Below, piece after piece: positions 9,429 through 49,401 of a stretch of DNA of 58,072 nucleotides (positions within the stretch are counted from its first letter, which is position 1; every line of letters starts with the position of its first letter). The notes beneath the pieces were generated by a model. That model searched no databases, was not told the origin of the DNA, and worked only from the letters and a program-made list of their open reading frames with translations. The stretch lies in assembly GCA_964524105.1 (NCBI GenBank), contig CAZGBX010000005.1, positions 3,772 through 61,843 on the forward strand, read 5' to 3'. The position numbers were made by a program, and so were the translations under genes. The DNA is from Candidatus Woesearchaeota archaeon (GTDB taxonomy: Archaea > Nanobdellota > Nanobdellia > SCGC-AAA011-G17 > GW2011-AR18).

Positions 9429-9563
9429 CATTTCTGTAATTTCAAGACATTCTTTGAAAATATTATCTTACAGTAACTATAAAACCAAACCTATTTAAAG
9501 AATTTCAAGAATCAATTCCAATAAGAAAGCGGTGACGGTTGTCACTTAACCGCTCGCGGGCGT

Positions 9564-9582
9564 TTTCCGAAAGGAAGCCTAA
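9564..9582 (+). other. tRNA-Cys intron 1 (19 nt, between positions 8 and 9)
   Basis: BHB motif. The 4-bp helix GGGC(9558-9561):GCCT(9577-9580) is flanked by the 3-nt bulges GTT (9562-9564) and AAG (9581-9583). The inner hairpin is TTCC-GAAA-GGAA. Cleavage after the second bulge nucleotide yields U8-G9. Confidence 0.7.
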
Positions 9583-9604
9583 GGCCAAGCGGCTAAGGCA
9601 AGAG

Positions 9605-9628
9605 ATTACGTTAATAGCGTAACTTGAA
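9605..9628 (+). other. tRNA-Cys intron 2 (24 nt, between positions 30 and 31)
   Basis: BHB motif. A perfect 4-bp helix CAAG(9599-9602):CTTG(9623-9626) is flanked by the bulges AGA (9603-9605) and AAG (9627-9629). The inner hairpin is TTACG-TTAATAG-CGTAA. Confidence 0.7.
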
Positions 9629-9973
9629 GCTGCAACCCTCTGACCCCAGGTTCGAGTCCTGGCGTCCGCTTTCTTTTTCAAACTTCCAAAGTTTCTTATC
9701 AAAATCTACAATAATACCACCAATCACAGAAACCCCTTCTTTTTGCAACAACTCAATCTTCTTAGAAGAACCTAAAGCAAACCCACCTAAAGAACCATCA
9801 GAATTAACAACCCTGTGACAAGGAACATAAGGTGCATAAGGATTCTTATTCAAAGCATTACCTACCGCCTGATAAGCTTTACAACCTAAAGCACTAGCAA
9901 TCTCTTTGTAAGTTGTAACATAACCTTCAGGAATTTCCCTTAACAAACCATAAACCAGATCATTAAACTTCAT
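9611..9973 (-). CDS. ogt: Methylated-DNA--protein-cysteine methyltransferase (MGMT/Ogt, C-terminal domain only)
   Basis: Active-site PCHRVV and helix-turn-wing TTYKEIASALG. The last ~20 codons run antisense through the 3' half of tRNA-Cys. Confidence 0.8.
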   Translation of the reverse strand: MKFNDLVYGLLREIPEGYVTTYKEIASALGCKAYQAVGNALNKNPYAPYVPCHRVVNSDGSLGGFALGSSKKIELLQKEGVSVIGGIIVDFDKKLWKFEKESGRQDSNLGSEGCSFKLRY

Positions 9974-10451: not shown

Positions 10452-10573
10452 GCCCATGTAGCATAGTTCGGCTATTGCGCCAGTCTCATAAGTTATGAGA
10501 ATTGAGACTTTTTAGTCAATGAAATAAAAACTAAGAAAGCTGGAGGTCGCGTGTTCAAATCACGCCATGGGCA
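10452..10573 (+). tRNA. tRNA with CAU anticodon (elongator Met or Ile2) carrying a 47-nt intron
   Basis: Acceptor GCCCATG/CATGGGC. Anticodon stem CCAGT/GCTGG. Loop CTCATA|intron|A. T arm GCGTG-TTCAAAT-CACGC. Discriminator A. It is not an initiator: it has G1:C72 and lacks the GGG/CCC anticodon stem. Confidence 0.85.
10491..10537 (+). other. tRNA-CAU intron at canonical position 37/38
   Basis: 47 nt lie between A37 (10490) and A38 (10538). The BHB is relaxed: helix CTCA:TAAG has one C-A mismatch, and the inner GTT:AAC pairs. Confidence 0.65.
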
Positions 10574-11373: not shown

Positions 11374-12627
11374 CTACAGTTTAATCTCTTTTACCCCACC
11401 CATATAACCTTGTAAACAACCAGGAATCTTAATCGTCCCTTTAGCAGTTTGGTTATTCTCTAAGAGAGCAACTAACAATCTAGAAGTTGCAAGAGCAGTA
11501 TTATTCAATGTATGAGGAGAATAAATCTCTCCTGAACCTTGTACCCTAATACCTAACTTTTTAGATTGAAAATCAGTCAAGTTACTACAAGACATAGTTT
11601 CAAAGTATCCTTTCTTTCTAGGACTCCAAACTTCAACATCAGCATACCTTGACTTCCAATCTCCAACTTCAGAAGCTCCAAACTCAATAACTCTAAAAGG
11701 CAATCTTAACTTCTTCATTATTCCAACAGAATTAGACAATAACTCTTCATAGTATTTATTAGAATCTTTTGGATCACAAATTATAATCTGTTCAACTTTA
11801 TTAAACTGGTGAGTTCTAAACAATCCTTTCTCATCTATTCCATGAGACCCTATTTCTTTCCTAAAACACATTGAGTATCCAGCTAACCTAATTGGCAAAT
11901 CCTTTTCCCTTACAGTCTCCCCAATGTACATCCCAATCAAAGGGTGTTCTGAAGTTCCAATCAAGTACAAATCTTCACCTTCAATCTTGTACACATGTTC
12001 TTTAAAGAAATCCATATCAATCACAGCATCACAAACTTTTCTTCTAATCATTAAAGGAGGTTCAACATAAGTAAACTTCTTCTTAACTAAAAAATCAATT
12101 GCAAATTGTATCAAAGCTAAGTTTAGTCTTGCCAAATCACCTTTCAAATAATAAAACCCATTACCTGCAACTTTAGCTGAAGCATCACAATCTAAAACAT
12201 TTAATTTCTCTGCAATATCAGCATGGTTCAGAACTTTCTTCTTCTTAGGTTCACCCCATTTCAAAACAACTTTATCCCTTTTACCAACAGACTTATGTAA
12301 AAGGTTAGGTAAAATAGTTAAAGTCTTATCAATATTCTCTTTAATCTCTTTTAACCTATCATCTGTATCAGCAATCTTTTTTGGAATATCTTTTACTTCT
12401 CTAATTTTCCCCTTAATATCCTTCCCCTTTTTCCTTAATTTATTTATTTCAATAGTTAATTTATTCCTCTGTGACCTCAAATCTTGATTTTCCTTTAATA
12501 ACCCCAAATACTCTTTATCTAATTTCAATAACTCGTCTAGCTTAGCAACCTTTTCTTTTTGACCTTTCTTCTCAATATTCTTTTTAATCAAAGCATGATT
12601 CTCTCTGACGAATTTTAAGCTAAACAT
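11374..12627 (-). CDS. serS: Seryl-tRNA synthetase
   Basis: 417 aa with an N-terminal coiled-coil arm and a class II core (FRKEIGSHG, TLNNTALATSR). Confidence 0.95.
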   Translation of the reverse strand: MFSLKFVRENHALIKKNIEKKGQKEKVAKLDELLKLDKEYLGLLKENQDLRSQRNKLTIEINKLRKKGKDIKGKIREVKDIPKKIADTDDRLKEIKENIDKTLTILPNLLHKSVGKRDKVVLKWGEPKKKKVLNHADIAEKLNVLDCDASAKVAGNGFYYLKGDLARLNLALIQFAIDFLVKKKFTYVEPPLMIRRKVCDAVIDMDFFKEHVYKIEGEDLYLIGTSEHPLIGMYIGETVREKDLPIRLAGYSMCFRKEIGSHGIDEKGLFRTHQFNKVEQIIICDPKDSNKYYEELLSNSVGIMKKLRLPFRVIEFGASEVGDWKSRYADVEVWSPRKKGYFETMSCSNLTDFQSKKLGIRVQGSGEIYSPHTLNNTALATSRLLVALLENNQTAKGTIKIPGCLQGYMGGVKEIKL

Positions 12628-12679: not shown

Positions 12680-14038
12680 ATGTTAAAACTCTACAACACT
12701 TTAACAAGAAAAAAAGAGAATTTCAAGCCAATTAAAAAAACTGTAGGCATGTACACTTGTGGACCTACTGTCTACTGGTACCAACACATTGGAAACTTAA
12801 GATCATATATTTTTGCAGACTTACTAAAGAGAGTTTTACTATACAATAAATACAAAGTTAAACAAATAATAAACGTCACTGACGTAGGACATCTAACTTC
12901 TGACAGAGACACTGGAGAAGATAAGATGGAAAAAGCTGCAAAAAAAGAAAACAAAAAAGCAAAAGACATTGCTAACTTCTACCTTAAACTATTCAAAGAA
13001 GACTTCAAGAAACTAAACATTCTTCCTCCAGACAAATGGACAAAAGCAACACAGCACATCAAAGACCAAATACAACTAATTAAAACTCTAGAAAAAAAAG
13101 GGTTTACTTACCAAACTTCAGACGGAGTTTACTTTAACACTTCAAAAGTAAAAGACTATGGGAAATTAGCAAGACTAAAAAAACAAGATCTTAAAGCAGG
13201 GAAAAGAGTTTCATTAAAAGAGAAGAAAAATAAAACAGACTTTGCTTTATGGAAATTCTCAAAAAAGAAAGGATTAAGACAACAAGAATGGAAATCGCCG
13301 TGGGGGCTAGGTTTTCCGGGTTGGCACATTGAATGTTCTGCAATGTCAACTAAATACTTAGGAAAACAATTTGATATCCACACAGGTGGTAAAGAACACA
13401 TTCCAGTACACCACACAAATGAAATCGCACAATCAGAATCAGCTTTCAATAAAAAACCATGGGTCAAGTACTGGCTACACGGAGAATGGTTGATGTTCAA
13501 AGACGGAAAAATGTCTAAGAGCAAAGGCAAAATCTACACTTTAGAAGCATTAGAGAGAAAAGGCTTCCAACCTTTAGAGTATAGATATTTCGTGCTAAAC
13601 GCCCATTACAAAAAACCATTAAAGTTTGATTGGAAAGCATTAGAAAACAGTCGGAACGCTTATTCAAGATTAAAGAACATAATCTCTGAAACTAAGAACG
13701 ACAAAAAACTAAACAAGAAATACTTAAAACAATTTGAAAAAGCAATAAACAATAATTTAGACATGCCAAATGCAATTGCAGTAATGTGGAACTTACTAAG
13801 AGACAAAAAAGAAACAGGAAAAATAAACACAATAAAAGAAATGGATAAAGTTCTGGGATTAGACTTACTAAAAAAAGATTTAATACCTAAAGAGATCAAA
13901 GACTTAGTTAAAAAAAGAGAACAAGCAAGAAAAAACAAAGACTGGAAAAAATCAGATAAGTTAAGAGACAAAATAAAATCTAAAGGTTATGAAATTAAAG
14001 ATAAAGAAAAGAAAACAATAATCATGAAGCTTGCCTAA
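12680..14038 (+). CDS. cysS: Cysteinyl-tRNA synthetase
   Basis: Class I signatures HIGN and KMSKS, plus zinc-site CGPTVY. The ORF track starts at TTG 12662, but the ATG at 12680 fits the TATA spacing. Confidence 0.95.
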
Positions 14039-31686: not shown

Positions 31687-32850
31687 ATGAAAGAAGTCTT
31701 AAAGTCCATAAAACCATCTGAAAAAGAAGAAAAAAAACTAAAATCCAAACTAGACAAATTTCTTTCAAAACTAAAAGACTGTAAAGAGGAAATCTTCATT
31801 GGCGGTTCATATGCAAAAGGCACTTGGCTCTCAGGAAACCATGATATTGACTTATTTGTTCAATTCAAACAAGACGTTGACATCTCAAACAGACTAGAAA
31901 AGATCCTCAAAAATTCATTTAGAAAAGTTTCAAGACTTCACGGTTCAAGAGATTACTACCAAATTAAGTTCAAAGGAATCTTATTTGAAATTGTACCAGT
32001 AGCTAAGATAAAAAAAGCAGAAGAAGCAAATAATACAACAGACGTCTCACCTTTACACGTAGAATGGGTTAAAAAGAACACAACTAAAAAACTATGTGAT
32101 GAAATAAGGTTAGCAAAACAATTCTGTAAAGCACAAGGAGTTTATGGAGCAGAGACTTACATTAAAGGATTCTCAGGCCACGCATTAGAAATTCTAACAA
32201 TTAAATTAGGCTCATTCAAGAAACTATTAAAGAGCAACTTCAAAGAGGGAAAACAAATTGGAAAAGGAAAAATAAACAAAGACAAACTCTCACCTTTAAT
32301 CTTAATTGATCCTTCAGATAACACAAGAAACGCGGCTGCAGCACTATCAATAGAAAAGTTCAACAAATTCAAAGAAGCAGCTAAACAATACTTAAAGAAA
32401 CCATCTAAAGAGTTCTTCAAAGAAAAGGGGATAACAAAGAAAGACATAAAAGACAAAGATATAATCATCACAGCTTACCCATTAAAAGGAAAAAGAGATA
32501 ATATTGGAACTAAACTTCTCAAAGCTTATGAATTAACCTCAAAAGTTCTAAAAGAGTTCAAGGTAGAAGATTCAGGTTGGCACTGGGAAGAAAGAAAACC
32601 TGCCCTATTCTGGTTTAACTTAAAAGAAAAAGAACTAAAAAAGTTCAAGATCCATCCAGGTCCACCTTTAACAAAGATAAAACATGTAAAAGAATTCAAA
32701 AACAAACACAAGTTCACATTCACAAAAAACAATAAACTTTACGCTAAAGTAGAAAGAGAATTTACAACACCTAAAGCATTACTAAAATACTTACTAAAAC
32801 AAAAAGACATAAAGAAAAGAGTAAGGAAAATAAAATTATCCAAGTCCTAG
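31687..32850 (+). CDS. cca: CCA-adding enzyme (archaeal class I tRNA nucleotidyltransferase)
   Basis: GGSYAKGTWLSGNHDIDLFV catalytic motif, followed by RLAKQFCKAQGVYGAE. Confidence 0.9.
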   Translation: MKEVLKSIKPSEKEEKKLKSKLDKFLSKLKDCKEEIFIGGSYAKGTWLSGNHDIDLFVQFKQDVDISNRLEKILKNSFRKVSRLHGSRDYYQIKFKGILFEIVPVAKIKKAEEANNTTDVSPLHVEWVKKNTTKKLCDEIRLAKQFCKAQGVYGAETYIKGFSGHALEILTIKLGSFKKLLKSNFKEGKQIGKGKINKDKLSPLILIDPSDNTRNAAAALSIEKFNKFKEAAKQYLKKPSKEFFKEKGITKKDIKDKDIIITAYPLKGKRDNIGTKLLKAYELTSKVLKEFKVEDSGWHWEERKPALFWFNLKEKELKKFKIHPGPPLTKIKHVKEFKNKHKFTFTKNNKLYAKVEREFTTPKALLKYLLKQKDIKKRVRKIKLSKS

Positions 32851-37231: not shown

Positions 37232-37771
37232 CTAAGGTCTTTTCCAAGCAACTTCATAATAAGTCACTTCTCCCTCAGCATCTGCAATACCCAACAATAG
37301 CCTCTTTCTTGTAGAATGAGCCACCCTATTCTTAGCAGCAAACTCAAACCAAGTTAAAGAATTCCCTTCTGAGACTGGAAAAACAACCCACTTAGCATGA
37401 TCATCACCAGGCTTAACACCCCTATCATAAACTCTAAAATCAGCTCCAAACTTCAGTGCAGTCTTAACAATGTACCCCCTTCTCCTCAAATCAGAGAAAA
37501 CTAAATACCTTGTCCAAAAGTTCTTCTCAACCCTGGAAGCTTTCTTAACATAATCATTAAAACTTAACTTTTTTCCCCTTCCATCTACAACCACAAACCT
37601 TTTTCTCTCTAACAAATGCAAGGCTTCTAACAAAGCATACTGAAACTTCTTTCCTCTGATAGGTTCTCCAAACCTTGTCTTATCATAGAGCTCTCTAGTA
37701 ATATCATTGGAATCTCCTAACACTTGACTACCTACAAACCTTACTTCTGTAGTCTCTTCTTTCTTTACCAT
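37232..37771 (-). CDS. endA: tRNA-splicing endonuclease (single-unit, alpha-type size)
   Basis: 179 aa. YLVFSDLRRRGYIVKTALKFGADFRVYDRG...HAKWVVFPV catalytic domain. Confidence 0.9.
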   Translation of the reverse strand: MVKKEETTEVRFVGSQVLGDSNDITRELYDKTRFGEPIRGKKFQYALLEALHLLERKRFVVVDGRGKKLSFNDYVKKASRVEKNFWTRYLVFSDLRRRGYIVKTALKFGADFRVYDRGVKPGDDHAKWVVFPVSEGNSLTWFEFAAKNRVAHSTRKRLLLGIADAEGEVTYYEVAWKRP

Positions 37772-37793
37772 AGTTTCAAACTACATACAAAAG

Positions 37794-37801
37794 TATTTAA
37801 A
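37794..37801. promoter_or_regulatory. Shared TATA box (TATTTAAA / TTTAAATA) for divergent endA and rnz
   Basis: Lies 23 nt from the endA ATG (37771) and 23 nt from the rnz ATG (37824). Confidence 0.5.
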
Positions 37802-37823
37802 ATATCCTCTATAATATATATTC

Positions 37824-38711
37824 ATGTTTTCAATAACATTTTTAGGAACAGCATGTATGGCACCGACTAAAAGTCGGAATGTCTCAAGCATTTTACTTAA
37901 TTACAAGTCTGATGCTATTCTAATTGATTGTGGTGAAGGTACTCAAAGACAGATCAAGGTTGCTAAACTAAAACCTAATAAAATTAGTAAAGTTTTGATT
38001 ACTCACTGGCACGGAGATCACGTTTTAGGTTTAGGGGGATTAATTAGGACATTAGGGTCCAACGCTTATTCAAAAGACTTGGAAATTTACGGCCCAAAAG
38101 GAAGTAAGAAATATTTTAAAAACTTGATGAACTCTTGTATCTTTCATGAAAAAATTACAACTAAAGTTAAAGAGTTAAAGAAAGGAATTTTCTTTGAGAA
38201 CGATAAGTACAAACTAGAATGTATCTCCTTGAAACATTCATCCCCTTGTCTAGGGTTTTCCTTCACTGAAAAAGATAAAAGAAAAATCAAAGTTAATTAC
38301 ACTAAGAAGTTTGGTTTAACTCAACACCCTTTACTTGGAGACTTACAAAAAGGAAAAGACATTACTTACGAAGGAAAGAAAATCAAAGTAAAAGACGCTA
38401 CAGAGTTAATCAAAGGAAAGAAAATCACTTTTATTATAGACACCACAGAATGTAAAGAAGCTATTACATTAGCCAAGGACTCAGACTTACTAATTTGCGA
38501 AGCAAGTTTCATTGAAAAAGAAAAAGATCAAGCAAAGAAATCAAAACACCTTACAGTAAAACAAGCAGTAAATATTGCAAAGAAAGCTAAAGTAAAAGAA
38601 CTAATCTTAACACACGTTTCTCAAAGATACAAAACAGATAAAGAGTTACTAAAAGAAGCTAACTTCAAGAAAGTTAAAGTTGCAAAAGACTTTATGAAAA
38701 TAGAATTCTAA
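37824..38711 (+). CDS. rnz: Ribonuclease Z (tRNA 3' endonuclease)
   Basis: Metallo-beta-lactamase motif ITHWHGDH. N-terminal FLGTACMAPTKSRN. C-terminal LTHVSQRY. Confidence 0.9.
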   Translation: MFSITFLGTACMAPTKSRNVSSILLNYKSDAILIDCGEGTQRQIKVAKLKPNKISKVLITHWHGDHVLGLGGLIRTLGSNAYSKDLEIYGPKGSKKYFKNLMNSCIFHEKITTKVKELKKGIFFENDKYKLECISLKHSSPCLGFSFTEKDKRKIKVNYTKKFGLTQHPLLGDLQKGKDITYEGKKIKVKDATELIKGKKITFIIDTTECKEAITLAKDSDLLICEASFIEKEKDQAKKSKHLTVKQAVNIAKKAKVKELILTHVSQRYKTDKELLKEANFKKVKVAKDFMKIEF

Positions 38712-39786: not shown

Positions 39787-40707
39787 TTATTCCTCATCCA
39801 CCAACTTCTTCTTAATCTTATCTTTAAGGTCAAGTTCTTTTAACAATTCCTTATACCTATTTCTGATTGTAACTTCAGTAACACCTGCAACATCCGCAAC
39901 TTCTCTTTGTGTTCTTTTCTCATTATTCATAAGAGCAGCAACATACAATGAAGCAGCAGCAATTCCAGTTGGTCCTCTACCAGAAGTTAACTCAGCGTCT
40001 CTAGCTTTTTGTAAAATATCAACAGCCTTAGATTGTGTCTCAGCACTTAACTTCAAAGCACTAACAAACCTTGGCAAATAATCAACAGGATTAGATGGTA
40101 AAATTCTAATTCCTAATTCTCTTGTAATAAATCTATATGTTCTTCCAACTTCTTTCTTATCAATTCCAGAAGCTTCAGAAAGTTCATCTAATGTTCTTGG
40201 TACCTCATGTCTTCTACAAGAAGCATATAATGCACCTGCAACAACAGACTCCATACTTCTACCCCTTACAAGTCCTTTTTGTACAGCCATAGTATAAATT
40301 CTAGCAGCTTCTTCTTCAACAGACTTAGGTAATTTCAAATATGAACTAACTCTTTTAAGTTCAGCTAAAGCTAATTTAAGATTTCTTTCAATTGCAGTAG
40401 AAATTCTATGTTGCCATTTCCTTAACCTAAAGAATTTATTCTTTCCTTTTGATCCTAACTGGTATAAGTCACCTTTAGCACCAACATCAGTAGATAATCC
40501 TTGATCATACTTAGTATAAGTCATTGGAGCACCTGTTCTTCGCTTCTTAGAAGCATCAGAATCATCAAACTCTCTCCATTCTTGACCAAAGTCAATCATT
40601 TTCTCTTCAATAACTAAACCACAGTCTCTACAAACAGCCTCACCTTTATCTTTTTGAACATGTAAATTAGAACCGCCACACTCAGGGCATTTTCTCATCT
40701 GTCTCAT
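39787..40707 (-). CDS. tfb: Transcription initiation factor IIB (TFB)
   Basis: Zn ribbon CPECGG...CRDCG followed by two cyclin-fold repeats. The long ORF begins at GTG 40731; the ATGs at 40707 or 40698 are more plausible starts. Confidence 0.95.
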   Translation of the reverse strand: MRQMRKCPECGGSNLHVQKDKGEAVCRDCGLVIEEKMIDFGQEWREFDDSDASKKRRTGAPMTYTKYDQGLSTDVGAKGDLYQLGSKGKNKFFRLRKWQHRISTAIERNLKLALAELKRVSSYLKLPKSVEEEAARIYTMAVQKGLVRGRSMESVVAGALYASCRRHEVPRTLDELSEASGIDKKEVGRTYRFITRELGIRILPSNPVDYLPRFVSALKLSAETQSKAVDILQKARDAELTSGRGPTGIAAASLYVAALMNNEKRTQREVADVAGVTEVTIRNRYKELLKELDLKDKIKKKLVDEE

Positions 40708-42512: not shown

Positions 42513-43238
42513 CTACTTCAACACTTTAAACAACTTCATTCTAAGAAGATTAGTTAAAACAACAAAAACTAAAGAAAGAATTATTAGAATAATCAAAGAA
42601 ACACTTAGAACAATAAACACATAGATCAAACCAACTAATAACACTAATAAAAAGGAACAAATCAAAAACAATACAAACCAATGCCAAGTCCTCCTTAACT
42701 TATTCAAACCATGAACAAAAACATTTCTTAAATTATAACTTCTACAAAAAGCCACAAAATTAAAGTACAAAACAATTGAAACTAAAACAGAAACTAAAAG
42801 TAAAATCCAACCATTCACCCACCCAACACCAAAAGAGAAGTAAGATAAGAAATCTAAAAAAGCTAAAACAAAAATTAAGAAAGCAAAAGCATTAACTAGG
42901 TTCAACAAAGCAATCCTTTTCCAACTAACATTTCTTAATTCTTTCCAAGCTAAACCTTCAAAAATTAAAAACAATAAATAAATACCTAAAGGCAAAACAA
43001 TCATGTACAAACCTAAAGCATAATAAGATAACCTTGAAGCACTATCAATTACAGCAGTATTAACTTCAGCAGTTAAGTTACTAGCAATTAATTCTTGTTG
43101 TATTTGATTAAGTTCAGGAAGATAACTTTTCAAATCCACTAACATCTTTTCTGCAGTAATTCGAACAACATAAACTAATCCAACTAACAAACCAATTAAA
43201 ACAATTCCAAACAGATTAAGTCTAATATGCTTTTTCAT
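42513..43238 (-). CDS. Polytopic membrane protein, last gene of the giant-protein operon
   Basis: 241 aa with ~6 TM segments. ATGA overlap with the 1609-aa gene. Confidence 0.7.
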   Translation of the reverse strand: MKKHIRLNLFGIVLIGLLVGLVYVVRITAEKMLVDLKSYLPELNQIQQELIASNLTAEVNTAVIDSASRLSYYALGLYMIVLPLGIYLLFLIFEGLAWKELRNVSWKRIALLNLVNAFAFLIFVLAFLDFLSYFSFGVGWVNGWILLLVSVLVSIVLYFNFVAFCRSYNLRNVFVHGLNKLRRTWHWFVLFLICSFLLVLLVGLIYVFIVLSVSLIILIILSLVFVVLTNLLRMKLFKVLK

Positions 43239-46200
43239 TGTATCATTTTAATGTAAACAGGATTTCTATCAGCCCCATGAATTGCAGGATCTCCAAAATC
43301 AGAATAGATTTCATAAATCCCATGAGGAGTATCATAACTAAAAGTCTCCATAGGTTCAACATCCACCCTTTGATGAATCCATGGCAATCCAGGTTGAACT
43401 TTAATACGTGTAAAAACAAGCATATTTGCACCTACATTATTACCAGAATAAAGAAGATAATCCCCTGGGTCAGCAGCACCCCAATTATTAACATGGCCTA
43501 CAAAACTAACAACACCAGCCAATTTAACAGCATCCCCAACCTCCATTTGAAACTCACGTAAATCAGGGTCACCATCATCAAAACCTTCAGGTGCAAAATC
43601 CATCTCTTCAACATCAGCACCTGTATCCGCAGGTGGAACAACAGGTTCAGGAGCACTAGCAAAATCTCTTAAAGGTATCCTCCCTTCACTAGGAGGTCTT
43701 CCACTTAACCAAGCCAAAGAAATACGTCCAAGAGTTACATGATCCACCGTCACAGGAACATAATTTACTCTATTACCCAAATAATGTTGTTGAGTAAAGT
43801 CCTTATTACCAAATTCTCTTGTAATAAACCTAACAGCGTTTTCAGTTGGTAAAGCAGCAGCACCAGTCCTTCCTGGAGGCAAGACCAACAAGTTCAATTC
43901 ATACCCAAAATTCTTACTAACTAACTTATCCCATACTAATTGTGTTGCACCATAATAATCAGAATCTGAAAAAGTTATCTTATGTGGATTAATCCTATTT
44001 AAATCACCACTTTGAGCAGCCCACCAAAGAACAGCACCACCAGCACTATGTCCAGTCATAGAAATAAAAGAACTCTGATCTTGAATCATTCCAAATTTCT
44101 GAGCAAGAATAACCTTTACTTCACTCTGTAATTCAAGAAGATCTATTCCTTCATCATCATTCTTCCGAAGTAATGTTTTTTGCCTCGAAAGGGCCCTCCT
44201 AGGTTCTTTATTAGTTCCAGCAGACCAAGGAAGCTCAGGGAAAACTAAAACAAAATTTCTATTTTGATTATTAACCATATACTCTATTTGAGGAGCTAAC
44301 CTTTCTTCCATATCAACATCAAACCCGTAAATCCCATGGAAAAAGTACATAATTTCAAAAGGTTGATTCAAATTAGTTTCTTGAGGAACAAAAATAATTG
44401 TTTCTCTCCCTTCCGCAGGCATATTAAAGTTATCACCAGGCCCATTAGATTCCAATTTACCAATCCAAGTCCTCCCTGTAACACCCTTAGAATCTAAAGC
44501 GCTAAGCCATTTCACTTTAGTAGCTTCCAAAGCATTACCCTCAGCAACAATAATCCAAGGTTCAGAATCTCCTCCAGTTAATATTGAAGTTGGATCTGGT
44601 CCACCAGTAGAGCCAGGACCAGGATCAGTACCATCATCCACATCAAAAACATAGTCAGCATCTGCATCATCAAAAGGACCACTAGTAGAAGTTCCAGAAA
44701 GACCACCTTCAAATTCACTAACATGAACTTCTTGTTCTTCACCAAGATTCACAACAAAACTATTCCCAAAAGACCTTGCCCTAAAACTCCTAAACGTAAC
44801 TTGATCACCATCTCTTTCAAGAACAATTTTATATATTTTATTTTCAGCAACACCTAATTCTTGTTTAGTTCCAGAAACTAACTTCTCATCATCAACTCTA
44901 AAAGCATAAAACTTATACACTTCACTTTCATAAGTCAATAATATATACCATCCATCATCATCAATCTCTCCAAATTTAACATCACCAATTTTCTTAAACC
45001 TTGTACTATAAGTTTTTTCATCATCAACGTTTCCTAAGTTCTCAGGAATACTAAATATAAAATCTCCTGAACCAGCAGGCTTATCAACTTCAATAACCCA
45101 AGCATCTTTCTTCCTTATACATTTTCCTTCACGACCAAAAGCTTTATTGAAGAATTTATCTGACTTAATAGGTTTCCAAACACAACTATTACCAATCTTC
45201 CCACTAATATAATCACAAGCGCTCCTAGAACAAGTTTTTCCACCTGACTGACAAGAACTACAAGTCACAGCTTCTTTAACTCCAAACGCCCCAGGTTTAG
45301 TAATATCCCACTTATCTAACTCAACAGGATACTTAACTACATCATCACCAAACCCGTGATTAAAATCCCTATTCACATTCCCATAAACACACCTACCTAA
45401 CCCAAGAGACTTCTTCCAATCAGAACCACCAAACACATAATGCCAATATTCACCAAGCCAATTTATCCAACCATGATCACACATCATCCTCCTATACTTA
45501 TTTTGCTCATCAATATCAGTCTTCACTTTCCCCAATTTTTTAGCAGGTTGAACATCAATCGCATAACCTTGTGGATGTAAACAATGTTTGTAACTCTTAA
45601 GATCTTCAATCTTATCTTTATACTTACTACCTTCTGTAGTTTTCAACCAAGATTTAACTGCAGTCAGCCTTGCACTCTTAGAAGAATTTGATAATCCTGG
45701 AGTTGAAGAGATATATGCAGAAACCTTCCTTCTAATACTTCCACGAGAAACACTAAATTTAGGTCCACAAGCAGTATCCCCACCACCAAGGTAACGCATA
45801 AATGCTCTTGATTGAGTTTTCTCACTTCTTCCAGCACTAATAACCTTCAAAGAACCATAACCATTAACCTCAAGATTATCAATAAAATCTTTGTCAATCT
45901 TCATACTATCTAACTTAGCTTTAACATGCGGCAACATACAACACTTCCCCTTATAAGTACTACACCGAATATACTTATTTCCTTTAAAGTTAACAAAGTT
46001 TCCAGGGAACCCTTTACAATCTCCACTAGTTTGAATATTATCAAAGTCAGGTTCTTCAAACTCAATAGGAGAAGTCACTGGCTCACCATCCTCATCATAC
46101 TCTTGTTCAGGTTCAGGCTCAGGTTCTCTTTCAATAGGCACTCTCCTAATTGTCTTCTCTTCAATCAAACTCACAGTACCTTCATGTATCCTTCTAAGTT

Positions 46201-48064
46201 CAGCTAACTTCTTATACATCCTAGCCTGTTCTAAAAGAGCCTCATTAGAAATTGCCCCATCAAAAGTTCTTTTATTAACGTCATCATAAGTTAATCCAGT
46301 TGGAGGGTCTCTAAGTTCAACTAACTGCCTAATAATATCTTCTGCACCTGGTAGATCTTCAAGTGTTCTTCTTGGTGCTTTCTCATCAGTACTTTCACCA
46401 ACAAAAGTACAATAATAACTTTGTTGATAACAACATTTAGTTCCTTGTGACATACACTCCTGATCACTCATTATACTTCCACCTTGTACAAAAGTTCTTA
46501 TTTGATCTTCAGAAAATCCCTTATAAAACCTACACTCATAATTTGGTGCAAAGTTATCACAAATATTTTTTATTTTTCCAACTGAAAAAACATTCACACT
46601 CCCACCCATAATATCCTGTTCCTGTTTTAATTCAAACCTATAACCACCAACAGTTTTAACATCACCAATACTACCCAAGTAAATTGGTTTCACACCAGAA
46701 ACACGACCAAGATTATCAACTTGAAATAAACTAAAAGACTTCTTCCCACTTTCTTCTACAAGGGCAACATAATCACCAGGAGATTTCATTCCATTCAACC
46801 AACCTGTAAAAGTTTCAACATTACTTATTTCTTCATCAACAAAACATCTCTTCCCACGACCATTCAAACTAAGAACAATAAAATCCCCTAAACTTAATTC
46901 AAGAAGATCATCACCCACATTATAATACCCTACATCAGAAGGTTCAATCCCACTACAAAACTCATCAGTACCCCCACCAGGCAAAACAACAACAGTAGCA
47001 ACACCAGTCCCAGTGGGAGTAGCTCCAGAAGAAGGAGCTAAATCACCAGGCAAAACCAAACCCCTTGCATCAGCATATTTCTTCCCAAACTTTTTCATAT
47101 ATTTTTTACTTTGTCTAGCAACACCCTTAGCAATAATCTCTCCTTTCTCACGAGAAACAACAACCATATTTTCCTCATACCTCACATCCCCGGATCCTTC
47201 TAAACTAGTTAAAGTTGCGTCAAAATCAGTAGAGTAAAACATCTCCCTAATTGCCTTTTCAGTCATATACGTCCTCATGTCAGGGTCGTCATGAGACATA
47301 GAACGTATGTTAATCAATTTCTTATTCTCCAAATCAATCTCAAAACTATAATGTAAAATCTGTCCATTCTTAAGTTGAATATCAATATTTGTTACAGAAC
47401 CATCAGCAAAAATACTAGCAGGAGGTTTAACCATACCCAACTCAGGAATAATTTGGTCTTCCATTTCACTCATCAAAAAATTAGTCCAATCTTTTACATT
47501 TAACCCCACACCAACATCCCCACCACTCCCAAAACTCAGAGCACCAGGAGCACTCACTTGCTGTGTAGGGGTCTTGTCTGGTGGTGAAGGAGCAACATCA
47601 GAAGGTTCCGTTTCATCATCAACACTAAAAACATAGTCAGCATCAGAATCCTCTAAAGGACCACCCCAATCACCATCACTTTGATCTGAAGGATCATCTG
47701 GATCAACAGGACCAGAGCTTTCTGTATAACTACAATGGTCCCAATCTGGACAATAAGCAACTACAGCTTTATTTTCAAGAGAAAAATCAAACCTGACACC
47801 ATGCAAACGATACTTTTTAAACTCATTCACCCCAACATCATCATTTAACCTAAAACACTTCTTCGCAAAATAATCACTAGCCCTCAATAAAGCTTCATCC
47901 TCCTGCACAGTAACTGGCATATCCTCATCAAAAGTCACAGCAGCAATACACCCATAACTTCCTTCCATCCGCTGGGCAAATTCAACTAAACTCTCACCAA
48001 CAACCACATTACTAACTAAAAGAATCATACAAAAAATTAAAACCAATTTTATTTTCAAGGACAT
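43235..48064 (-). CDS. Giant (1609 aa) secreted multidomain protein with VanY/M15-like peptidase and alpha/beta-hydrolase motifs
   Basis: Signal peptide MSLKIKLVLIFCMILLVSNVVVG. SAGRSxxxQ, HPQGYAID and EYWH motifs at aa 743-875. FFHG and GHSAGG at aa 1241-1342. Cys-rich modules, and a repeated DADYVFxVDD linker. Confidence 0.85.
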   Translation of the reverse strand: MSLKIKLVLIFCMILLVSNVVVGESLVEFAQRMEGSYGCIAAVTFDEDMPVTVQEDEALLRASDYFAKKCFRLNDDVGVNEFKKYRLHGVRFDFSLENKAVVAYCPDWDHCSYTESSGPVDPDDPSDQSDGDWGGPLEDSDADYVFSVDDETEPSDVAPSPPDKTPTQQVSAPGALSFGSGGDVGVGLNVKDWTNFLMSEMEDQIIPELGMVKPPASIFADGSVTNIDIQLKNGQILHYSFEIDLENKKLINIRSMSHDDPDMRTYMTEKAIREMFYSTDFDATLTSLEGSGDVRYEENMVVVSREKGEIIAKGVARQSKKYMKKFGKKYADARGLVLPGDLAPSSGATPTGTGVATVVVLPGGGTDEFCSGIEPSDVGYYNVGDDLLELSLGDFIVLSLNGRGKRCFVDEEISNVETFTGWLNGMKSPGDYVALVEESGKKSFSLFQVDNLGRVSGVKPIYLGSIGDVKTVGGYRFELKQEQDIMGGSVNVFSVGKIKNICDNFAPNYECRFYKGFSEDQIRTFVQGGSIMSDQECMSQGTKCCYQQSYYCTFVGESTDEKAPRRTLEDLPGAEDIIRQLVELRDPPTGLTYDDVNKRTFDGAISNEALLEQARMYKKLAELRRIHEGTVSLIEEKTIRRVPIEREPEPEPEQEYDEDGEPVTSPIEFEEPDFDNIQTSGDCKGFPGNFVNFKGNKYIRCSTYKGKCCMLPHVKAKLDSMKIDKDFIDNLEVNGYGSLKVISAGRSEKTQSRAFMRYLGGGDTACGPKFSVSRGSIRRKVSAYISSTPGLSNSSKSARLTAVKSWLKTTEGSKYKDKIEDLKSYKHCLHPQGYAIDVQPAKKLGKVKTDIDEQNKYRRMMCDHGWINWLGEYWHYVFGGSDWKKSLGLGRCVYGNVNRDFNHGFGDDVVKYPVELDKWDITKPGAFGVKEAVTCSSCQSGGKTCSRSACDYISGKIGNSCVWKPIKSDKFFNKAFGREGKCIRKKDAWVIEVDKPAGSGDFIFSIPENLGNVDDEKTYSTRFKKIGDVKFGEIDDDGWYILLTYESEVYKFYAFRVDDEKLVSGTKQELGVAENKIYKIVLERDGDQVTFRSFRARSFGNSFVVNLGEEQEVHVSEFEGGLSGTSTSGPFDDADADYVFDVDDGTDPGPGSTGGPDPTSILTGGDSEPWIIVAEGNALEATKVKWLSALDSKGVTGRTWIGKLESNGPGDNFNMPAEGRETIIFVPQETNLNQPFEIMYFFHGIYGFDVDMEERLAPQIEYMVNNQNRNFVLVFPELPWSAGTNKEPRRALSRQKTLLRKNDDEGIDLLELQSEVKVILAQKFGMIQDQSSFISMTGHSAGGAVLWWAAQSGDLNRINPHKITFSDSDYYGATQLVWDKLVSKNFGYELNLLVLPPGRTGAAALPTENAVRFITREFGNKDFTQQHYLGNRVNYVPVTVDHVTLGRISLAWLSGRPPSEGRIPLRDFASAPEPVVPPADTGADVEEMDFAPEGFDDGDPDLREFQMEVGDAVKLAGVVSFVGHVNNWGAADPGDYLLYSGNNVGANMLVFTRIKVQPGLPWIHQRVDVEPMETFSYDTPHGIYEIYSDFGDPAIHGADRNPVYIKMIQ

Positions 48065-49401
48065 TGTTCAGTTCCTATTGTCAAAGTACCAACAGCCTTA
48101 GCATCAGGACCATTCATCCAAGCATAAGGCGCAATACCTTCACTATCTAAATCATCACGCCTTGCAAAGTTAATCCTACATCCTGTTTGTTGCGCAGCAG
48201 TACTTTCATCTCCAAGTTCAAGCAAGAACCTAATAACAGATAACGCATTCTTTCTCACTTCAACATCATCAAGACTATCTAATCCAACAGCAGGTGAAGC
48301 ACCAACAGCCATCTCATAACCTTTATGTGACCATGAAGGCTGACTTACAACACCCGGATAAGTATTACCAAGGACAGGATCACCAAGAGCCAATCTATTC
48401 TTAGCAATACCAAGTATTGTTCCTTTCTCTTCTTTAGTTGTGTCAGGCGTAGTTTCAAATCCTAACATCTGTGTTAAATGTTCAACATTATTATTATTCA
48501 ACCCAAATTTAGCAATAACATTCCTAACTTGATCAGGTGTAACATCAGCAGGATTGTTTCTAACTAAAACATCTAAGTCTTCACGACTAATTGGAACCCT
48601 TTCCTCTTCAATAACCCTATTAACAATTTGAACTCCTCTTGCCTCACCGTGTGTACTAGCATACTCATTAATCATTTGTTCTAATCTTTGCAACAAAGCC
48701 CTTTTCCTATCATTCAATCCAAACAAAGCTTTCCTAGCTTTAGCAACTTCTATTGTATCTAACTTATCTTTAGCTTTCTCAAACAAACTCTTCTCAATAT
48801 CATCACTAACTTCAAGATCATTAACCCTCACAGACTTCCTTTGTATCCAACAACTTCCAAGTTCACCACCACACTCTCCAACTTTAGCCCACTCATTAAC
48901 AGGACCAGGAACAATTGGATTACAAACCCTAACTAAACCTGTTGAAAAAGCACCATACTTTTCAGGGAAAGGTAAAGTAGCAGAACCAACACTCAGAGAA
49001 CTATACCTATCATTAGTAATACACTCTTCAGCAGAACCAATATCTTGTGTAACTTGATTCCTTACAGCCAAATCAGTTAACTCATTAAAAGCAAAAGACG
49101 AAGTTACTTTTCCAAACCCACATTGAGGATCATGTCCAGTTATATGTATACAAATCTCATTATAACCTTCACGAGCAGCAGTTTGTACAGTTTGTTGAAC
49201 ATACTTTCCCTTCTCAACATTCAAGTATTGTCTCCCATCACTATTTGGATTAGTTGCAACAAATAAAGGTGGTAATCCTAACTGATCATTCTTCAAATAA
49301 ACAGTAAATTTCAAAGGTTCTTTATGTACACCACCTAACTGTTGCGGACTACCTAACAAACTTTCACTTGAAGGATAACCAGTCCCGGCATAAATATGAT
49401 A
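48055..49401 (-). CDS. Secreted or anchored ~448-aa protein of the giant-protein operon (start uncertain)
   Basis: The ATG at 49401 gives MFKVLGLILIYHIYAGTG, which is signal-like. The ORF is open to 49476 and overlaps the upstream gene. Its stop overlaps the next start (ATGTCCTTGA). Confidence 0.65.
   Translation of the reverse strand, partial: YHIYAGTGYPSSESLLGSPQQLGGVHKEPLKFTVYLKNDQLGLPPLFVATNPNSDGRQYLNVEKGKYVQQTVQTAAREGYNEICIHITGHDPQCGFGKVTSSFAFNELTDLAVRNQVTQDIGSAEECITNDRYSSLSVGSATLPFPEKYGAFSTGLVRVCNPIVPGPVNEWAKVGECGGELGSCWIQRKSVRVNDLEVSDDIEKSLFEKAKDKLDTIEVAKARKALFGLNDRKRALLQRLEQMINEYASTHGEARGVQIVNRVIEEERVPISREDLDVLVRNNPADVTPDQVRNVIAKFGLNNNNVEHLTQMLGFETTPDTTKEEKGTILGIAKNRLALGDPVLGNTYPGVVSQPSWSHKGYEMAVGASPAVGLDSLDDVEVRKNALSVIRFLLELGDESTAAQQTGCRINFARRDDLDSEGIAPYAWMNGPDAKAVGTLTIGTEQCP

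Follow-up and report, generated by a model that had tools for sequence, protein, structure and literature searches.

A tRNA-Cys(GCA) gene with bulge-helix-bulge introns at positions 8/9 and 30/31 and a candidate helper leader in a Woesearchaeota-type archaeon

Gene layout and bulge-helix-bulge motifs

On sequence grounds, the segment 9556-9670(+) of the window, the whole 58,072-nt stretch of DNA analysed here, is a real but disguised tRNA-Cys(GCA) gene carrying two short introns, in a Woesearchaeota-type DPANN archaeon. The motifs quoted in a preliminary description of this segment agree with the letters of the window exactly, motif by motif. A TATA-like box that would serve as promoter lies upstream, and a T-rich trailer, probably the transcription stop, follows the last exon:

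9492..9499, + strand: TATA-like box TATTTAAA, read directly, 57-64 nt upstream of tRNA nt 1
9528..9555, + strand: structured 5' leader with a hairpin of its own (AGCGG 9528-32/CCGCT 9550-54 and TGAC 9533-36/GTCA 9541-44)
9556..9563, + strand: exon 1, tRNA nt 1-8 (GCGGGCG + U8)
9564..9582, + strand: intron 1, 19 nt, position 8/9, hairpin TTCC-GAAA-GGAA, its 3' GCCT pairing with acceptor nt 3-6
9583..9604, + strand: exon 2, tRNA nt 9-30 (G9, D arm, A26 and the 5' anticodon-stem strand to G30)
9605..9628, + strand: intron 2, 24 nt, position 30/31, hairpin TTACG(TT)-AAT-(AG)CGTAA, its 3' CTTG pairing with nt 25-28 (CAAG)
9629..9670, + strand: exon 3, tRNA nt 31-73 (G31, loop CUGCAAC, T arm and the 3' acceptor strand)
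9671..9678, + strand: T-rich trailer TTCTTTTT, read directly, with similar T-runs in relatives

Deletion of 9564-9582 (19 nt) and 9605-9628 (24 nt), the segments earlier predicted to be lost when each bulge is cut behind its second nucleotide, leaves a 72-nt molecule that ARAGORN calls as tRNA-Cys(GCA) and draws as a cloverleaf with standard arms, a GCA anticodon and U73. The unspliced segment, in contrast, yields no tRNA call by ARAGORN or by the Rfam tRNA model. Exon 3 has a 4-nt variable loop and the discriminator U73 and does not encode CCA. U73 is an identity element for cysteinyl-tRNA synthetase (CysRS), and it is present in every tRNA-Cys family member compared. A strict bulge-helix-bulge (BHB) parser combined with ARAGORN finds just one solution for the window and places its junctions behind nt 8 and nt 30. 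When intron 1 alone was removed, ARAGORN reported a 'tRNA-Ile(AAT)', reading the intron-2 hairpin as the anticodon arm and leaving a huge variable region, a call that the orthologs contradict.

Four further assemblies, obtained from different samples, carry the locus with 100% identity, so it is no assembly artefact. The exact 41-nt 3'-exon sequence gave 0 matches in the genome contig collection, the adjacent MGMT protein, used for synteny, retrieved bacterial relatives only, and exact-protein look-ups of HIT and SepF returned no match.

Both motifs found by the strict parser have the 3-4-3 geometry, with opposite 3-nt bulges and a 4-bp central helix free of mismatches. In the first, BHB1, the helix GGGC(9558-61):GCCT(9577-80) is flanked by bulges GTT(9562-64) and AAG(9581-83) and closed by the hairpin TTCC-GAAA-GGAA; in the second, BHB2, the helix CAAG(9599-9602):CTTG(9623-26) is flanked by AGA(9603-05) and AAG(9627-29), and its hairpin TTACG..CGTAA can be extended to 7 bp. 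The inner helix thus comprises 4 bp in BHB1 and 5-7 bp in BHB2, and the contiguous outer helix 2 bp in each. Loose BHB-like motifs are common (18 in 150 nt, with a 2-bp inner helix and spans of up to 80 nt allowed), so that a motif by itself is weak evidence, and the counting of motifs as stand-alone evidence was dropped. When the exons were kept fixed and the introns shuffled, with cuts at the exact junctions and 4 bp or more in the inner helix required, a strict BHB appeared in 11 of 200,000 trials for intron 1 and in 25 of 200,000 for intron 2. Bulges, flanking helices, joinable exons, compensatory change in relatives and an endonuclease in the same genome were found for both introns.

The central helix at 8/9 takes up acceptor nt 3-6 and therefore competes with the acceptor stem; at 30/31, nt 25-28 are used. 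Full-length thermodynamic folding gives a predicted structure from which BHB1 is absent: the minimum free energy (MFE) fold of the complete precursor (-51.3 kcal/mol) has the acceptor stem in its place, and the best fold with both BHBs reaches -45.8 kcal/mol.

Related genes and covariation

Related tRNA-Cys genes devoid of either insert (n=42) allow the splice junctions to be defined from aligned sequences, independently of the BHB motifs. The spliced window product is 93-94% identical to the intron-less tRNA-Cys of four related Woesearchaeota (L044, L035, L050 and L047), and in a MAFFT alignment to the intron-less orthologs the gaps fall exactly at 8/9 and 30/31. Nor is the two-intron gene unique to the window, since the same or a partial architecture occurs in at least 11 other Woesearchaeota/Nanoarchaeota assemblies. 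With the strict-BHB parser and ARAGORN, both junctions were recovered in L064 and L098, as in the window, the 8/9 junction only in L075 and the 30/31 junction only in L045. Other relatives carry tRNA-Cys introns at 37/38 or about 59/60, a T-loop intron is found in the Woesearchaeota relatives L033, L037, L049 and L054, and relaxed first introns occur in L101 and L104. One metagenome scan added only three further genes, all of the L075 type. Intron-bearing and intron-less tRNA-Cys genes are interleaved among close relatives.

The central helices vary in sequence among these genes, the first occurring as GGGC:GCCT, GGAG:CTCC, GGAG:CTCT and GGGA:TCCT, and the second as CAAG:CTTG, CGAT:ATCG and CGGT:ACCG. 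Intron 1 covaries with acceptor nt 5 and 6 in L064, L098 and L075, and three of the four pairs of the second central helix show compensatory changes in L064 and L098. Changes on both sides affect 5/8 central-helix pairs, in a small sample of 4-5 sequences per helix. On A1, 100% of the central-helix cells pair, against 23-53% with the partner slid, and the covariation score of the central helices was reached by 0/500 shuffles. Compensatory changes preserve the architecture in other species, which points to selection on splicing. The gene, its junctions, its motifs and their covariation are thereby established in silico: splicing of the letters, the intron-less orthologs and the covariation of both central helices all agree with the earlier assignment of a tRNA-Cys(GCA) with BHB introns at 8/9 and 30/31. 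The search for a second tRNA-Cys suggested at that stage was carried out within the 58-kb window, which contains no other tRNA-Cys-like T arm.

The 5' leader, the splicing endonuclease and alternative readings

With the TATA-like box 57-64 nt ahead of nt 1, the 5' leader would be some 30-40 nt long. Judged by eye, the distance from the box to nt 1 is ~28-37 nt in intron-less relatives versus ~40-70 nt in genes with an 8/9 intron, and every gene with an 8/9-type intron has a longer 5' leader. In the window, the leader segment 9545-9554 (CTTA-A-CCGCT) is antisense to the D-loop/D-stem nucleotides 9588-9597. In MFE folds of partial transcripts, 9545-48 pairs with 9594-97 and 9550-54 with 9588-92, beside G1C2:G10C11 and BHB1, so that leader:D-arm pairing adds 9 bp to the outer helix of BHB1. 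This leader-assisted BHB1 is the MFE structure for window transcripts ending at 9600, 9630, 9645 and 9662, with a leader helix contribution of about -12 kcal/mol in the growing transcripts. In these predicted folds most of the outer helix of BHB1 seems to come from the 5' leader, which the preliminary description overlooked.

Across the family, the upstream 25 nt contain a CTTAG-like motif in 11/12 genes with an 8/9-type intron and in 0/39 without one; the window carries the variant CTTAA. The motif stands at a fixed 4-6 nt from nt 1, and its extensions always continue the complementarity to GCGGCTAAGGC, while the surrounding leader hairpins differ. Leader x D-arm duplexes reach -12.6 kcal/mol in the intron genes versus -7.2 in those without (p about 1e-4). 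In the window itself the energy of this duplex was matched by 715/2000 shuffles, no better than chance, and the proposed role of the leader therefore rests on family conservation and not on the window alone. Pairing of the leader CTTAG with the 3' splice region CCTAAGG was also considered, but is inconsistent across the family, unlike the complementarity to the D arm. Acceptor-like words far upstream (GCGAGG, GCGGAG) were discarded as an alternative exon 1, as no valid tRNA results from any splice geometry; with their likeness to AAGCGG they may rather mimic the D loop and pair, within the leader hairpin, with the anti-D segment.

Four protein genes with roles in tRNA processing or charging are present in the window, as established in silico:

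12680..14038, + strand: cysteinyl-tRNA synthetase (Pfam tRNA-synt_1e, 1.9e-91, plus CysS_C)
31687..32850, + strand: CCA-adding enzyme (Pfam tRNA_NucTransf2, CAA_C and NTP_transf_2)
37232..37771, - strand: EndA, tRNA-splicing endonuclease, 179 aa (Pfam N- and C-terminal domains PF02778 and PF01974)
37824..38711, + strand: RNase Z-like metallo-beta-lactamase (Pfam Lactamase_B_2, Lactamase_B and Lactamase_B_4)

CysRS, the consumer of tRNA-Cys, is encoded 3 kb from the tRNA gene. The CCA-adding enzyme is needed because the tRNA-Cys gene encodes no CCA. The RNase Z-like gene, with a role in 3' trailer removal, is divergently adjacent to endA, and no RtcB gene was found among the window ORFs scanned.

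EndA at 37232-37771 (the strand of the ORF reported earlier is here corrected to minus) is the enzyme that would be expected, from its sequence, to cut both BHBs. Its description as a short single-unit type can be kept and made more precise: the protein has 179 aa and two domains, resembles the M. jannaschii enzyme and lacks the N. equitans loop, and no EndA paralog was found within the 58-kb window. The accompanying remark that such enzymes take strict substrates agrees with the two strict tRNA-Cys motifs, but the central helix of a neighbouring tRNA-Met intron contains a C.A mismatch, and 'strict substrates only' is therefore not established. The closest solved structures are N. equitans alpha (3IEY_A, 1.3e-33) followed by M. 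jannaschii alpha4 (1A79). Y115, H125 and K156 are invariant in 14 family members, none of which has an insertion before the catalytic His. Residues 32-179 align to 1A79 with a single 1-residue gap, whereas against N. equitans alpha a 6-residue gap falls at the latter's residues 90-98, and the acidic loop (D164, E166) is kept where N. equitans alpha is shortened. As a single subunit of ~180 aa with both domains and the Tyr/His/Lys triad, EndA shows sequence features of the alpha4 type. With loop positions taken from PMC3488258 and PMC5829648, it lacks the CSL/L1, ASL/L2 and N. equitans (L3) loops, L1 and L2 being judged only from the near gap-free 1A79 alignment.

We consider it highly probable that 9556-9670(+) is a functional tRNA-Cys(GCA) with BHB introns at 8/9 and 30/31, a leader-assisted first BHB and a precursor spliced by EndA. 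Chance or an assembly artefact as the origin of both motifs, for which the abundance of loose BHB-like motifs in the window might speak, is already refuted by the shuffle controls (11 and 25 of 200,000), by covariation and by the identical sequence in four other assemblies, and with homologous introns in other species it retains practically no probability. It is also very improbable that the locus is a decaying pseudogene, a tRNA-Cys broken by two insertions that are not removed while a working copy resides elsewhere. The view covers only 58 kb of the genome, and the unspliced gene goes unrecognised by ARAGORN and the Rfam tRNA model; however, the exons show no damage and match functional-looking orthologs almost completely, exact BHBs lie at the exact junctions of both inserts, and other species keep the architecture with compensatory changes. 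In addition, the window holds no other T arm of the tRNA-Cys kind, and CysRS is encoded 3 kb away.

A somewhat unlikely reading accepts the gene and its introns but denies that the leader motif forms the outer helix of BHB1, regarding it as a promoter-proximal or processing signal, as part of an independent hairpin or as a relic carried along with the intron. Consistent with this idea are the chance-level duplex energy in the window, the folding of the isolated leader into a hairpin that covers the CTTAG-like motif in most family members, and the lack of the leader:D helix from the MFE structure in 5/11 relatives; moreover, the D arm was fixed by the search pattern in the collected set, so that its invariance is by construction and the leader:D helix lies outside the reach of covariation. 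Against it stand the confinement of the motif to genes with an 8/9-type intron (11/12 vs 0/39), its fixed spacing from nt 1 and the constant match of its extensions to the D-arm sequence despite differing leader hairpins, and without the leader the outer helix of the first BHB would have just 2 bp. The role of EndA itself could be read otherwise, with the protein as the catalytic alpha subunit of an N. equitans-like (alpha-beta)2 enzyme whose beta subunit is encoded elsewhere, a broad range and a merely incidental strictness of the motifs. We hold this to be distinctly unlikely. The best structural match to N. equitans alpha, ahead of M. jannaschii alpha4, the mismatched helix in the tRNA-Met intron and the relaxed first introns of L101 and L104 would fit such an enzyme, but the window EndA retains its N-terminal domain and its acidic loop, aligns to M. 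jannaschii almost without gaps, has no counterpart of the lysine-rich loop at residues 90-98 of N. equitans alpha (PMC3488258) and has no paralog in the window; furthermore, alpha4-type EndAs are described in several DPANN lineages in the main paper of Kaneta et al. 2018 (PMC5829648).

Proposed processing and its place among known systems

We infer a route of cleavage and ligation in which the leader acts as a helper and the steps follow a set order. The precursor would be transcribed with a leader of ~30-40 nt, and in the growing transcript 9545-9554 would pair with the D-loop/D-stem 9588-9597, so that G1C2:G10C11, by itself a helix of 2 bp, would grow into a long outer helix. With GGGC:GCCT, the GUU and AAG bulges and UUCC-GAAA-GGAA, this helix would complete a full helix-bulge-helix-bulge-helix substrate, while for intron 2 CAAG:CUUG, a hairpin of 5-7 bp and the AGA and AAG bulges would make up a separate motif. 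The 179-aa EndA would cleave each bulge behind its second nucleotide, leaving the exons to be joined by an RtcB-type ligase. After loss of intron 1, and as soon as the 3' acceptor strand can pair, the acceptor and D stems could form and the leader refold on itself, after which RNase P, RNase Z and the CCA-adding enzyme would finish the 72-nt tRNA for charging by CysRS.

The two-intron tRNA-Cys is a further case of an already known class of archaeal intron-disrupted tRNA genes, and it occurs in relatives too. In the texts of PMC4090602 and PMC4033280, Thermoproteales tRNA genes contain up to three protein-spliced BHB introns at non-canonical positions, including 30/31 and even 3/4; position 8/9 is absent from the intron-position list in the text of PMC4090602. 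The window gene resembles the multiple-intron genes described there in its non-canonical BHB introns, overlooked by standard finders. According to the same texts, however, Thermoproteales possess an (alpha-beta)2 EndA with a Crenarchaea-specific loop and many relaxed motifs (HBh' or hBH), whereas the window combines two strict 3-4-3 motifs with an M. jannaschii-like EndA that lacks loops of this kind. Canonical 37/38 introns cut by M. jannaschii-type alpha4 EndA share the strict 3-4-3 geometry and the cuts after the second bulge nucleotide, and that enzyme has the same length and the same Y115/H125/K156 triad as the window EndA; the window introns differ in lying at 8/9 and 30/31.

Among DPANN archaea, the pre-tRNA-Cys of ARMAN-2 (Ca. 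Micrarchaeum) has a T-loop intron cut by an epsilon2 EndA (PMC3488258, PMC3239211). It likewise represents a DPANN tRNA-Cys with a non-canonical intron, and a T-loop intron is found in some Woesearchaeota relatives as well, but its EndA is a three-unit enzyme with the ASL loop, its motif is relaxed and its intron position is another one. The main paper of Kaneta et al. 2018 (PMC5829648), which surveyed one Woesearchaeota and one Pacearchaeota genome, reports DPANN alpha4-type EndAs together with raised tRNA gene disruption, links that disruption to the L3 loop in DPANN EndAs, and presents incomplete DPANN tRNA sets as suggestive of undetected disrupted genes; specific tRNA-Cys intron positions were not found in it. 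Unlike the loop-bearing DPANN EndAs of that paper, neither the window EndA nor any of 13 relatives carries extra residues where the N. equitans loop is inserted. Regarding the leader, the closest likeness is with the split tRNAs of Nanoarchaeum equitans (Randau et al., 2005, as cited in PMC5829648), in which the BHB is offered to EndA by a long helper helix built from flanking sequence outside the tRNA. By that account two transcripts pair there in trans via complementary flanks, whereas the helper proposed here is a cis 5' leader that would pair with an exon (the D arm) and be displaced later. No description of an 8/9 leader segment antisense to the D arm was found in the literature searched.

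The locus couples non-canonical intron positions with a loop-free EndA resembling the narrow-specificity alpha4 type, and suggests that strict motifs and a 5' leader recruited as outer helix are how such an enzyme could serve these positions. We put forward, as a plausible but tentative reading, that a lineage whose M. jannaschii-like alpha4 EndA is free of every loop regarded as necessary for non-canonical introns nevertheless keeps introns at several non-canonical positions through the strict hBHBh' substrates of the genes themselves, with a conserved stretch of the 5' leader, antisense to the D arm, standing in as the missing outer helix at 8/9. The co-evolution model of EndA and tRNA genes can be tested in vitro here with one small protein and one ~150-nt transcript, and the interleaved intron-bearing and intron-less tRNA-Cys genes of close relatives are a small set of cases in which gain and loss of introns can be studied. 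As ARAGORN and the Rfam tRNA model both miss the gene, automated annotation would report 'no tRNA-Cys', and an absence of this kind could feed wrong inferences on the host dependence of DPANN archaea. If the tentative reading is true, the leader would be a cis-acting helper and a folding switch that forces splicing before maturation of the 5' end, and thus a new class of accessory element for tRNA introns, and intron position would be separated from motif relaxedness in the model of EndA/tRNA co-evolution.

The tRNA-Cys locus and its surroundings

The sequence that the preliminary description quoted for 9556-9670(+) matches the window exactly, with an acceptor stem of seven base pairs including one G.U (GCGGGCG, 9556-62, with CGTCCGC, 9663-69), the T arm CCAGG-TTCGAGT-CCTGG and the discriminator U73. 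Unspliced, the locus receives no ARAGORN call, a tRNA-Leu being the sole match in the whole window. At the Rfam gathering threshold it is also without a match, the genes found being the tRNA-Leu and, at 10452-10573, a tRNA with an intron, and permissive mode yields a partial tRNA match of 13 bits and nothing more. Removal of 9564-9582 and 9605-9628 leaves a clean 72-nt tRNA-Cys(GCA) in ARAGORN, with a G+C content of 68% compared with about 33% for the genome; both inserts are A+T-rich.

A permissive scan for bulge-helix-bulge (BHB) motifs returns many in any 150-nt stretch of this sequence, and such a motif therefore proves little by itself. In a control that shuffled the introns and left the exons unchanged, strict 3-4-3 BHBs that cut the exact junctions and had 4 bp or more in the inner helix arose in 11 of 200,000 shuffles for intron 1 and in 25 of 200,000 for intron 2. 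In addition, the 231-nt locus is identical in four assemblies, each from other samples, which rules out an assembly artefact. The case beyond chance rests on three independent lines, namely homology, the motif at the junctions and the independent assemblies, and these support the earlier reading of a tRNA-Cys(GCA) with introns at 8/9 and 30/31. Judged from sequence, 9556-9670(+) is very probably a functional two-intron gene.

Features of the window around the tRNA-Cys gene
9611-9973, minus strand: MGMT/Ogt-like ORF, 120 aa
10452-10573, plus strand: second intron-containing tRNA, anticodon CAT (Met or Ile2)
11374-12627: SerRS
12680-14038: CysRS
31687-32850: CCA-adding enzyme
37232-37771, minus strand: EndA, the tRNA-splicing endonuclease, 179 aa, with both EndA Pfam domains
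adjoining endA: RNase Z
39787-40707: TFB
43235-48064 and 49364-53746, minus strand: two giant ORFs, 1609 and 1460 aa

The window thus encodes CysRS, which consumes tRNA-Cys, and most of the enzymes that process it, among them the CCA-adding enzyme, RNase Z and EndA; the window ORFs scanned included no RtcB. The tRNA(CAT), missed by ARAGORN and scoring 52 bits in Rfam, is interrupted at the canonical 37/38 position by an intron of 47 nt (10491-10537). The final 20 or so codons of the MGMT/Ogt-like ORF lie antisense to the tRNA-Cys gene, across exon 3 and the last part of intron 2. Its homologs match only to about residue 101, where the tRNA gene ends, so that the tail resembles a read-on to the first stop. 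Close relatives of this ORF in the genome collection are all bacterial, which suggests acquisition by horizontal transfer. The ORFs next to the giant ones, 53743-55734 and 42513-43238, match nothing in Pfam.

Introns among related tRNA-Cys genes

A search with a gapped exon pattern yielded 43 tRNA-Cys genes, most of them in Woesearchaeota/Nanoarchaeota MAGs, and all but one (42/43) are insert-free at both 8/9 and 30/31. The spliced window tRNA is 93-94% identical to four of the related loci (L044, L035, L050, L047), and MAFFT places the alignment gaps precisely at T8|G9 and G30|G31. A second pattern, requiring a non-T base before G9 and the D arm, brought in nine more archaeal genes in which an insert separates the D arm from the 5' acceptor strand; three others came from a metagenome scan. 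Several MAGs labelled 'uncultured Methanosarcinales' (L014, L015, L018, L021 and others) have tRNA-Cys genes and A+T-rich flanks resembling the Woesearchaeota set, and their taxonomic labels may be unreliable.

Junctions assigned by the strict BHB parser and ARAGORN (L numbers: related tRNA-Cys loci in other assemblies)
Window, L064, L098: after nt 8 and 30
L075: after nt 8
L108, L111, L113: 8/9 motif same as L075
L045: after nt 30

Other combinations occur. L102 (2272-2444(-)) seemingly has three introns, at 9/10, 30/31 and 37/38, and a 5' intron accompanies a long canonical 37/38 intron in L057:221-379(+), L059:6223-6357(-) and L104:107-248(-). The strict motif puts the first cut one nucleotide further along, at 9/10, in L057, L059 and L102; L101 shares their junction sequence (one nt shorter), and the parser found no strict motif at its first junction. 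Four genes without an insert at 8/9 or 30/31 (L033, L037, L049, L054) instead have a T-loop intron of about 28-50 nt right after GGTTCGA(G), at about 58/59-59/60. Since the nearest neighbours of intron-bearing genes are intron-less, at 93-95% identity and in two different sequence groups, tRNA-Cys introns have been gained or lost repeatedly among these relatives.

By sequence comparison, the central helices of both BHBs evidently vary in a compensated fashion. The first is GGGC:GCCT in the window, GGAG:CTCC in L064, GGAG:CTCT in L098 and GGGA:TCCT in the L075 group; the second is CAAG:CTTG in the window and L045, CGAT:ATCG in L064, CGGT:ACCG in L098 and CAAT:GTTG in L102. In alignment A1, a small sample of 4-5 sequences per helix, 100% of cells pair as against 23-53% with the partner slid by 1-3 columns, 5 of the 8 central pairs show changes on both sides, and the observed covariation score was reached by none of 500 shuffles. 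Independently, the second central helix, including three compensatory pairs, emerges when RNAalifold is applied to the three genes with two introns.

The leader and the predicted folding of intron 1

The first BHB has G1C2:G10C11 as its only contiguous outer helix and competes with the acceptor stem, because acceptor nt 3-6 form one strand of its central helix. The predicted minimum free energy (MFE) fold of the complete precursor is acceptor-paired (-51.3 kcal/mol); the best fold with both BHBs reaches -45.8 kcal/mol.

The preliminary description overlooked the 5' leader and its putative role. A conserved word lies 4-6 nt upstream of nt 1 in all 12 genes with an 8/9-type intron (CTTAG in 11, CTTAA in the window) and in none of the 39 genes without one; by eye, a TATA-like box lies about 40-70 nt upstream in the former, compared with about 28-37 nt otherwise. 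Together with its flanks, the word is reverse-complementary to the D-loop/D-stem sequence GCGGCTAAGGC. For the window transcript to nt 25, the MFE structure pairs 9545-48 with 9594-97 and 9550-54 with 9588-92, and this predicted leader:D pairing runs nearly continuously into G1C2:G10C11 and then the exact BHB. Transcripts that end at 9600, 9630, 9645 or 9662 still have the leader-assisted conformer as their MFE, and it loses that rank only once the 3' acceptor strand is added; the leader helix contributes a predicted -12 kcal/mol or so. Family-wide, the leader x D-arm duplex averages -12.6 kcal/mol in intron genes versus -7.2 kcal/mol (p about 1e-4).

We rate the helper role separately from the two-intron reading, because 36% of shuffles match the window's duplex energy, 5 of 11 relatives lack the leader:D helix in their MFE, a hairpin of the leader alone often covers the anti-D motif, and the search pattern fixed the D arm in the gene set, placing the leader:D helix outside the covariation count. 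On these predicted folds, we give slightly better than even chances that the leader would act as a helper for intron 1.

Besides the anti-D segment, a D-loop-like word (AAGCGG, AAGCGAG or AAGCAG) occurs 28-50 nt upstream in the leaders of the window (9528-9555), L057, L059, L064, L075, L098, L101, L102, L104, L108, L111 and L113. This word and the anti-D segment often form a leader hairpin together, which may be a switch that frees the D arm after splicing.

The endonuclease and known archaeal systems

The solved structures closest to the window EndA are the N. equitans catalytic alpha (3IEY_A, 1.3e-33) and the M. jannaschii alpha4 enzyme (1A79, 4.4e-30). Unlike N. equitans alpha, it has retained an acidic loop (D164, E166) as well as the N-terminal domain, and it is 6 residues shorter exactly at the lysine-rich specific loop of that protein (residues 90-98; PMC3488258), termed L3 by Kaneta et al. 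(PMC5829648). The alignment with M. jannaschii EndA spans residues 32-179 and needs just one gap, of 1 residue. These features are common to all 13 Woesearchaeota homologs in the alignment, which differ only in N-terminal extensions; Y115, H125 and K156 are invariant. EndA homologs carry the annotations Woesearchaeota, Nanoarchaeota or Nanoarchaeia. No EndA paralog was found in the 58-kb window. The gene and an RNase Z-like gene on the plus strand are divergently adjacent (37232-38711), a pair also present on an independent contig (L114).

The earlier description of EndA as a short single-unit type stands as far as the window can tell, whereas its inference of strict substrates only is weakened, since the BHB central helix of the tRNA(CAT) intron (CTCA:TAAG) has one C.A mismatch and the first introns of L101 and L104 are relaxed.

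Thermoproteales and some other archaea are well-known hosts of protein-spliced BHB introns at non-canonical sites, with as many as three in one gene, and 30/31 is among the listed positions (PMC4090602). Kaneta et al. (2018) surveyed one Woesearchaeota and one Pacearchaeota genome, reported DPANN alpha4-type EndAs along with an elevated level of tRNA gene disruption, and took incomplete tRNA sets as pointing to undetected disrupted genes (PMC5829648). tRNAscan-SE 2.0 looks for such introns, with BHB models trained on Crenarchaeota/Euryarchaeota and Thaumarchaeota (PMC8450103). In the text of the literature searched, we found neither an intron at tRNA position 8/9, nor a leader element tied to one, nor a pairing of non-canonical positions with an EndA that has no N. 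equitans-type loop. Given the non-canonical BHB introns and DPANN tRNA disruption already reported, the two-intron tRNA-Cys belongs to a known class of archaeal BHB tRNA introns. Its recognition in the preliminary description was correct and useful, and adds a testable mechanistic twist within that class.
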